From: Escherichia coli
GTDB taxonomy: Bacteria; Pseudomonadota; Gammaproteobacteria; Enterobacterales; Enterobacteriaceae
DNA: 6,146 nucleotides
Reading direction: 5' to 3' (one strand)
Assembly (NCBI RefSeq): GCF_003334355.1
Contig: NZ_QOWP01000067.1
A program made the position numbers and the translations under genes. Shown in pieces: positions 1,468-2,509 of the stretch. How positions within the stretch are numbered: position 1 is the first letter of the stretch; the number at the start of each line of letters is the position of its first letter. The notes under the pieces are model-generated. The model was not told the DNA's origin. It did no database searches and saw nothing but the letters and a program-made list of their open reading frames with translations.

Positions 1468-1496
1468 TTGAGATCCTTTTCAATGAATCGTAATCT
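1468..1496 (+). promoter_or_regulatory. RNA II (primer) promoter: -35 TTGAGA (1468-1473), 17-bp spacer, -10 TAATCT (1491-1496)
   Basis: Position and sequence parallel the pMB1/pBR322 RNA II promoter ('cttcttgagatcc...taatct'); transcription start expected near G1505. Confidence 0.7.
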
Positions 1497-1504
1497 CTTG
1501 CTCT

Positions 1505-2035
1505 GTAAACGAAAAAACCGCCTGGGGAGGCGGTTTGTTCGAAGGTTAAGTCAGTTGGGGAACTGCTTAACCCGGTAACAGGGTTCACGAGACCGCCATT
1601 ACCAAAACTGTTCTTTCAGTGTAGCCGCAGTCAGGCCTCTACTTCAAGACCTCTTAATCTATCTTCTCGTGCACTCCTGTTACTAATGGCTGCTGCCAGT
1701 GGCGTTTTGTCGTGTCTTTCCGGGTTGGACTCAAGTTGATAGTTACCGGACAAGGCGCAGCGGTCGGACTGAACGGGGGGTTCGTGCATACAGTCCAGCT
1801 TGGAGCGAACTGCCTTCACGGAACTGAGTGTCAGGCGTGGAATGAGAAACCGCGGCCATAACAGCGGAATGACACCGGTAAACCGAAAGGCAGGAACAGG
1901 AGAGCGCACGAGGGAGCTACCAGGGGGAAACGCCTGGGATCTTTATAGTCCTGTCGGGTTTCGCCACCACTGATTTGAGCGTCAGATTTTGCGATGCTTG
2001 TCAGGGGGGCGGAGCCTATGGAAAAACGGCTTCGC
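1505..2035 (+). ncRNA. RNA II pre-primer of a ColE1-type origin (ends approximate)
   Basis: Collinear similarity to the pMB1/ColE1 origin recalled from pBR322: 'ccagtggcg', 'gttggactcaag', 'gatagttaccgga', 'aaggcgcagcggtcgg', 'ctgaacggggggttcgtgca', 'gaacaggagagcgcacgagggagct', 'ccagggggaaacgcctgg', 'atctttatagtcctgtcgggtttcgccacc', 'gtcaggggggcggagcctatggaaaaacg'. Confidence 0.75.
1508..1611 (-). ncRNA. RNA I antisense copy-number regulator (about 104 nt)
   Basis: Antisense to the 5' end of RNA II; 5' end placed at the 'accaaaactgt' motif (pBR322 'accaaatactgt'); 3' end at hairpin 'ccgcctggggaggcgg' followed on the minus strand by a U-run (plus 'gaaaaaacc'). Confidence 0.7.
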
Positions 2036-2045
2036 CGTGGCCTTA
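2020..2045 (+). other. ColE1-type origin of replication (RNA-DNA transition region, approximate)
   Basis: 'ggagcctatggaaaaacggcttcgccgtggcc' aligns to the pBR322 origin switch region 'ggagcctatggaaaaacgccagcaacgcggcc'. Confidence 0.7.
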
Positions 2046-2099
2046 TCTCTTCTTTGCTAAGTGTCTTCCTGGTATCTTCCAGGAAATTTCCGTCCCCGT

Positions 2100-2310
2100 C
2101 CGTAAGCCGGTACCGCTCGCCGCAGCCGAACGACCGAGCGTAGCGAGTCAGTGAGCGAGGAAGCGGAATATCTCCTGTATCGCATATTCTGCTGACGCGC
2201 CGGTGCTGCCTTTTTTCTCCTGCCACATGAAGCACTTCACTGATTTTCGCAATCGTGGCAACATAGTAAGCCAGTATACACTCCGCTAGCGCTACATGAC
2301 TGGTTCAGGG
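2100..2310. other. bom/oriT-like region of ColE1/p15A type (nic site not mapped here)
   Basis: Strong similarity to the ColE1/p15A/pBR322 segment downstream of the origin as recalled: 'taccgctcgccgcagccgaacgaccgagcgtagcgagtcagtgagcgaggaagcgga', 'ctcctgccacatgaagcacttcactga', 'taagccagtatacactccgcta'. Confidence 0.55.
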
Positions 2311-2359
2311 CTGCGCCCCGAAACCCGCTAACAACCTCTCAGCTACTGGATATCACCCC

Positions 2360-2509
2360 ATGCCATCTGAATATGATGAACAACTGGATTCGACTGATAC
2401 GCAGCTTCCCGGCGAATATGACCTTTTTGATTTAATGGCGCAGGTTACTGAAGAGAACCTGCATGCCCCTGTGGATTTTGGGTCGCCTGTCGGCCGGGAA
2501 GCGTTATAG
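2360..2509 (+). CDS. Hypothetical small acidic protein (49 aa; MPSEYDEQLDSTDTQLPGEYDLFDLMAQVTEENLHAPVDFGSPVGREAL)
   Basis: Open frame ATG 2360 to TAG 2507-2509, too short for the ORF track; no clear Shine-Dalgarno; no family recognised. Sits where ColE1 plasmids carry mob genes. Confidence 0.2.
   Translation: MPSEYDEQLDSTDTQLPGEYDLFDLMAQVTEENLHAPVDFGSPVGREAL

Follow-up and report, generated by a model that had tools for sequence, protein, structure and literature searches.

Among enterobacterial ColE1-like plasmids rop is found in 59%, and oriT and cer flank the rop-relaxase region at its two ends; the same survey cites earlier work postulating recombination via oriT and cer (Ares-Arroyo et al., PMC8683028). 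In ColE1 itself (NC_001371) the gene, there named rom, is located at 1612-1803 on the minus strand, opposite to RNAII, and is followed by the mbe genes. A family of resistance plasmids with a shared backbone has furthermore been named RelN_RNA type 1 or 'p9123', and the sul2-ISVsa3 form is the predicted precursor within this family (Branger et al. 2019, PMC6807383).

The stretch of DNA analysed here (the window, 6,146 nucleotides) begins and ends with the same 77 bases and thus represents a circle of 6,069 bp that was read slightly beyond its start. This unit is 100% identical, over the full 6,069 bp, to plasmid RCS86_pI of E. coli ECOR 4 (NZ_LT985307), and it recurs at 100% identity in Salmonella and E. 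coli records and at 99.6-100% identity in Citrobacter, Shigella and Klebsiella, so that 18 database records from these five genera cover at least 80% of it. The backbone at 315-4772 is likewise 100% identical in sul2-strAB plasmids of 6,222 and 6,790 bp. The RCS86_pI record is typed by MOB-suite as mobilizable and relaxase-less, and Rop is absent from its annotation. Judged from the shared backbone, the sul2-ISVsa3 segment and the lack of an annotated relaxase, the window is a member of the p9123/pCERC1 family (RelN_RNA type 1). Since this family has been described before and many ColE1-type replicons do without Rop, a missing rop is in itself an already known and ordinary finding.

The initial annotation had placed the lack of rop at 1468-2360, but this interval is the origin itself, running from the RNAII promoter to bom, and relatives carry rop outside of it, either just past 2337 (ColE1 type) or at 2951-2958 (closest relatives). 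By its homologies the interval is a complete ColE1-type basic replicon with RNAII promoter, RNAI, origin and bom, and blastn aligns 1457-2337 to ColE1 594-1531 with 74% identity over 881 bp (E=8e-156). The antisense copy-number regulator RNAI (1509-1610, minus strand) is intact, matching Rfam RF00106 over its full length with 73.9 bits against a gathering score of 47 (E=1.1e-12) and folding into three stem-loops (-44.3 kcal/mol, z=-6.4). The putative RNAII (primer) promoter at 1468-1496 on the plus strand, read from the sequence and from ColE1 homology, would consist of a -35 TTGAGA (1468-1473), a 17-bp spacer and a -10 TAATCT (1491-1496), hexamer positions that follow those of the pMB1/ColE1 promoter, and RNAII would then start at about 1505; a strict consensus promoter scan called no promoter at 1468-1496. 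From here the RNAII pre-primer region extends on the plus strand, by homology to the ColE1 origin, over 1505-2026 to a predicted RNA-to-DNA switch, which probably takes place within the A-run GGAAAAACG at 2022-2026. This run pairs in the alignment with ColE1 1192-1198, which in ColE1 is 445 bp from the 5' end of RNAI (ColE1 749-751), the distances of 445 and 555 being textbook values for ColE1. The bom/oriT-like region, in which ColE1 homology also ends, occupies 2240-2337 according to alignments with ColE1 and a qnrB19 plasmid, and its conserved core GCCAGTATACACTCCGCTAGCGCTACATGACTGG is probably located at about 2270-2303. The placements of promoter, RNAII start, switch and bom core all derive from the ColE1 alignment and the textbook ColE1 distances.

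The identical record has no annotated rep gene and a scan of backbone ORFs revealed none, the exc1-like ORF reaching 43.9 bits with a 'plasmid replication DNA-binding protein' model whose cutoff is 85. It should also be mentioned that public annotation places small ORFs labelled 'replication initiation protein' or 'hypothetical protein' within RNAII/RNAI of ColE1-type origins, such as 784-942 in ColE1 (L007), 260-373 in the qnrB19 plasmid L004 and 5465-5623 in the identical record L001; these look like annotation artefacts and not like rep genes.

That the unit has no rop gene anywhere, as the initial annotation stated, is borne out by tblastn, a Rop HMM, Pfam and the existing annotation alike. 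The tblastn comparison of ColE1 Rop with the circularised 6,069-bp unit, which had been suggested as a check, returned a chance word of six residues only, LYRSCL at 2771-2788 (E=0.41), all remaining matches having E>1. The query is the ColE1 rom translation except for its GTG start, which is V in the raw translation, and it was confirmed by being 100% identical to database proteins with PF01815. A Rop HMM made from 59 sequences was applied, with its filters switched off, to every stop-to-stop segment of 10 aa or longer in the six frames of the circularised unit (264 segments, junction included), and the top score of 2.5 bits (E=1.7) equals the background of control loci. In Pfam, a concatenation of every open segment of 45 aa or longer from 2244-3468, to which a divergent Rop had been appended, yielded nothing from the window at E<=10, the sole domain being that of the spiked Rop (PF01815, 92.8 bits). 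NCBIfam is void for Rop, a genuine Rop used as positive control having obtained no Rop family match. We can conclude that a Rop homologue is absent from the whole unit.

A highly divergent homologue that went undetected is very improbable. Rop is short (63 aa), which makes weak homology hard to score, and LYRSCL is a six-residue identity to Rop; however, the HMM rises no higher than background here, while a leave-out version of it recovers, at 81-82 bits, Klebsiella-type Rops whose identity to its training sequences does not exceed 68%, and Pfam finds the spiked control alone. LYRSCL was also considered as a remnant of rop together with a nearby 'GTGACAAAA' resembling a rop start, but the two are in different frames. 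The word is furthermore located in a conserved hairpin (2776-2797), and the homologous stretch of the Rop-positive plasmid RCS83_pI is found about 160 bp upstream of its real rop, so that a remnant can be dismissed. The hairpin is G+C-rich and followed by a T-rich tail in the manner of a terminator, it lies just upstream of a repeat array, and it is conserved in RCS83_pI.

The homology to ColE1 detected by blastn stops at window 2337, corresponding to ColE1 1531 and thus 81 bp short of rom, and returns only at cer (3165-3259), exc1 (3295-3731) and the colicin-promoter region (3850-3927). Since the break precedes rom and homology resumes at cer, the whole rom-mbe block has been replaced by an unrelated segment. 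This segment without ColE1 homology (2338-2950) contains a 49-aa ORF, an AT-rich stretch, the conserved hairpin and an 11-bp tandem array (2841-2902), and it is found in 915 database plasmid records. Recombination through oriT and cer, as postulated earlier, fits the breakpoints of the window.

The second place at which rop may be found is revealed by small Klebsiella and E. coli plasmids (L002, L003 and L013), in which rop followed by a helix-turn-helix gene adjoins the cer region. By sequence comparison the closest Rop-positive relative is L013, that is RCS83_pI (NZ_LT985290), which has the same MOB-suite replicon type as the record of the window, rep_cluster_2335, and carries rop at 1354-1545 and the helix-turn-helix gene at 1545-1946. 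Window 2906-2958 aligns to 1262-1315 of this plasmid, ending in ACCCCCTT, and window 2951-3015 aligns to its 2376-2440, starting with ACCCGATT. The 1,060 bp between ACCCCCTT and ACCCGATT in RCS83_pI comprise rop, the helix-turn-helix gene and a spacer, and are represented in the window by one copy of the 8-mer, the single ACCCCCTT at 2951-2958. On this alignment 2951-2958 is the exact, unoccupied site of the rop-HTH cassette, defined to the base, and this is the sole modestly new detail of the analysis. The left end of the cassette is about 34 bp upstream of rop and is the same in L002 and L003 despite different abutting DNA. A 111-bp probe across the junction matched 1,552 plasmid records, 290 of which span it like the window, and most of the other matches begin at probe position 47 or 53, equivalent to window 2951 or 2957; the cassette itself was inspected in the three relatives and inferred in the other records that break at these positions.

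The window may have lost the cassette or the relatives may have gained it; the flanking 8-bp direct repeats ACCCCCTT/ACCCGATT are imperfect, being identical at 6/8 positions, and favour neither event. One may further speculate that rop is in this plasmid group a discrete cassette of about 1.06 kb (rop, helix-turn-helix gene and spacer) that is gained and lost at a fixed site adjacent to cer between short imperfect direct repeats, that there are therefore natural siblings with and without Rop whose RNAI loops 2 and 3 are identical, and that the neighbouring variable 11-bp array might influence replication-promoter activity or plasmid competition, but taken as a whole we consider this proposal rather unlikely.

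The array consists of 5.6 copies of TACATCACTT(T/A) at 2841-2902 as determined by TRF, and its copies account exactly for the lengths of sibling plasmids, 6 copies giving 6,069 bp, 4 giving 6,047, 3 giving 6,036 and 2 giving 6,025. At the equivalent place RCS83_pI has a different array with an 11-bp period, ACTACAnnnnn. The 49-aa ORF (WP_001138880.1, 2360-2509, plus strand) begins 23 bp past the break in ColE1 homology and is conserved in L004, L012 and L013. It bears a weak resemblance to the C-terminal tail of MazE only (NCBIfam E=0.026, profile positions 53-80 of 82), it has no Pfam match, and no toxin gene is present beside it; it has been counted as a 'MazE TA system' in the literature (PMC6807383), and from its sequence it looks like an orphan or truncated antitoxin.

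The searches covered homologues of Rop, a non-homologous helper being beyond their reach. One notion is that one of these non-homologous elements takes the place of Rop or tunes copy number. The array adjoins the empty site, its unit is present 2 to 6 times in plasmids that are otherwise identical, the analogous array of RCS83_pI is found in the same place, and the 15-bp RNA-polymerase-binding repeats of pSW200, to which the array could be compared, increase the activity of the RNAI/RNAII promoters by about 30% and drive competition between plasmids (PMC3628316), effects that count in favour of a role for the array. Such a role is however pure analogy, as the pSW200 units are unrelated in sequence and length, and the occurrence of an array in a Rop-positive relative speaks against replacement; as a substitute for rop the array was indeed rejected, since RCS83_pI has both array and rop and since the true junction is at 2951-2958. 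The 49-aa peptide has in turn nothing but its marginal family match. It is thus quite improbable that either element would stand in for Rop.

Beyond the junction follows a cer-like multimer-resolution region, assigned by homology to 2957-3260, which is 91-95% identical in L002, L003 and L013 and of which 3165-3259 is 71% identical over 95 bp to the cer of ColE1 (3844-3939). Its putative Xer core is GGTGCTGATAA-CAGATG-TTATGGTAAAT at 3231-3258, as judged by resemblance to ColE1 cer. The Exc1-like helix-turn-helix gene (3276-3764, minus strand) is recognised by ColE1 exc1 homology, window 3295-3731 aligning with ColE1 4453-4876, and is homologous to the ColE1 'entry exclusion protein 1', the label it also has in NC_005862, as well as to the helix-turn-helix gene that accompanies rop in the relatives; it matches NCBIfam NF038291 with E=3e-11, below cutoff. 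A 140-aa ORF with a glycine-rich N-terminal part (3901-4323, plus strand), annotated in siblings in a 129-aa version, ends 44 bp before the ISVsa3/ISCR2 transposase gene and is preceded by the ColE1 colicin-promoter homology and a LexA-box-like site with one mismatch (3868-3883). It has no Pfam match, and its sole NCBIfam match, to an RNase HI model (E=0.0087), reaches 15.9 bits where the cutoff is 300; most probably it is what remains of a bacteriocin gene that ISVsa3 has interrupted. Between this ORF and the ISVsa3 transposase start (ATG 4367) there is a perfect LexA-box-like palindrome at 4332-4347, CTGTATGTAAACACAG, which is the only exact LexA-box match in the window, at least one such match occurring in 15 of 200 shuffles. 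Within the transposase gene there is also a weak Rfam match to the drz-agam-1 ribozyme (4444-4523, minus strand; 22.9 bits against a gathering score of 37, E=0.34), which is most likely due to chance.

The lack of rop extends well beyond the window. When the Rop HMM was applied to 13 fetched loci, it matched in ColE1, L002, L003 and L013 only; the p9123-type plasmids gave no match, nor did L004 (the qnrB19 plasmid), L012 (2.5 kb) and L011 (a colicin plasmid). The rop-less origin-to-cer module (1400-3300) is covered to at least 80% by 270 records. An artefact of assembly or deposition in one record, which is a general possibility with nothing further in its favour, is scarcely credible as the reason for the missing gene, since the same arrangement is seen in the 18 full-length records of five genera and in the 290 records across the junction. 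The premise that ColE1/pMB1 plasmids usually encode Rop was consequently overstated, given the 59% of the survey (PMC8683028) and the presence of the rop-less module in hundreds of plasmids, and being without Rop is normal and heritable in this widespread backbone, not a lesion peculiar to this molecule.

We therefore favour the reading that this is a p9123-family ColE1-like plasmid with RNAI/RNAII and host-factor control from which both rop-bearing modules are absent, and we hold it to be very probably correct. Rop would be missing because the plasmid has neither the rom-mbe block that follows bom in ColE1 nor the approximately 1.06-kb rop-HTH cassette beside cer, and copy number would depend solely on host factors and the antisense pair RNAI/RNAII. 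That replication is controlled without any protein helper, and what this means for copy number, we infer from the arrangement.

An alternative to control by RNAI/RNAII and host factors alone is that a ColE1-like plasmid in the same cell encodes Rop and provides it in trans, so that the replicon would be functionally Rop-controlled in many of its hosts. It is established that Rop reads the shape of the kissing complex and not its sequence and that it acts in trans, and Rop in trans is said, in work by Lin-Chao from 1992, to suppress the high-copy phenotype of pUC; several small Col plasmids are furthermore often found together in enterobacteria. The window is however silent on its host, and the presence of the plasmid in many species and strains argues against dependence on such a partner, which makes general control in trans unlikely.

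Returning to the reading without Rop, the idea put forward in the initial annotation, that copy number may be elevated and sul2 dosage raised with it, is not to be assumed from the absence of rop. The ColE1-type replicon p15A naturally has no Rop and yet a moderate copy number, so that absence of Rop alone does not equal high copy number, and in pUC the engineered loss of rop is combined with a point mutation in RNAII. Four Rop-negative and three Rop-positive replicons show no systematic difference in their RNAI loops, and a long Rop-less lineage can have its own RNAI/RNAII settings. The only quantitative figures come from pBR322, in which rom-minus copy number is 3.2 times that of the wild type when growth is slowest and 1.4 times when it is fastest (PMC3103578), an isogenic deletion that is no predictor of the set point in a naturally Rop-less lineage. 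The literature search yielded no copy-number measurement for p9123, pCERC1 or spA. In a read-depth survey rep_2335 plasmids of an Escherichia-associated PTU, to which the window may or may not belong, had a lower copy number than other rep_2335 PTUs, and for Shigella sonnei high copy number was noted for spB and spC but not for spA, which shares the backbone of the window; both hint away from an unusually high copy number, neither being decisive. Copy number, and hence sul2 dosage, is thus not readable from the absence of rop and needs measuring, for which the empty site and the Rop-positive sibling RCS83_pI offer a clean natural pair to gauge the contribution of Rop in a wild resistance plasmid.

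When compared with known systems, the window is nearest to its p9123/pCERC1 siblings, from which it differs only in the number of 11-bp repeats and in the resistance genes they have added. The qnrB19 ColE-type plasmid pN56338-2 (L004) and the 2.5-kb cryptic plasmid L012 run colinear with the window over 1458-3259, with an identity of about 89.5%, and share the rop-less origin-to-cer module including the repeat array, but they carry qnrB19 or a SHOCT-domain gene as cargo instead of exc1, the bacteriocin remnant, ISVsa3 and sul2. RCS83_pI resembles the window in origin, bom, 49-aa ORF, AT-rich segment, 11-bp-period array and cer region (81-91% identity) and is identical to it in RNAI loops 2 and 3, whereas its 1,060-bp rop-HTH cassette, flanked by ACCCCCTT and ACCCGATT, has as its counterpart in the window no more than one ACCCCCTT. 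ColE1 has a homologous RNAII promoter, RNAI, origin and bom and a recognisable cer, exc1 and colicin-promoter region, but between bom and cer it carries rom and the mbe genes, whereas the window has an unrelated segment of 0.6-0.8 kb and no Rop. Finally, p15A and the pUC-type vectors are generally known as ColE1-type replicons that work, like this one, without Rop.
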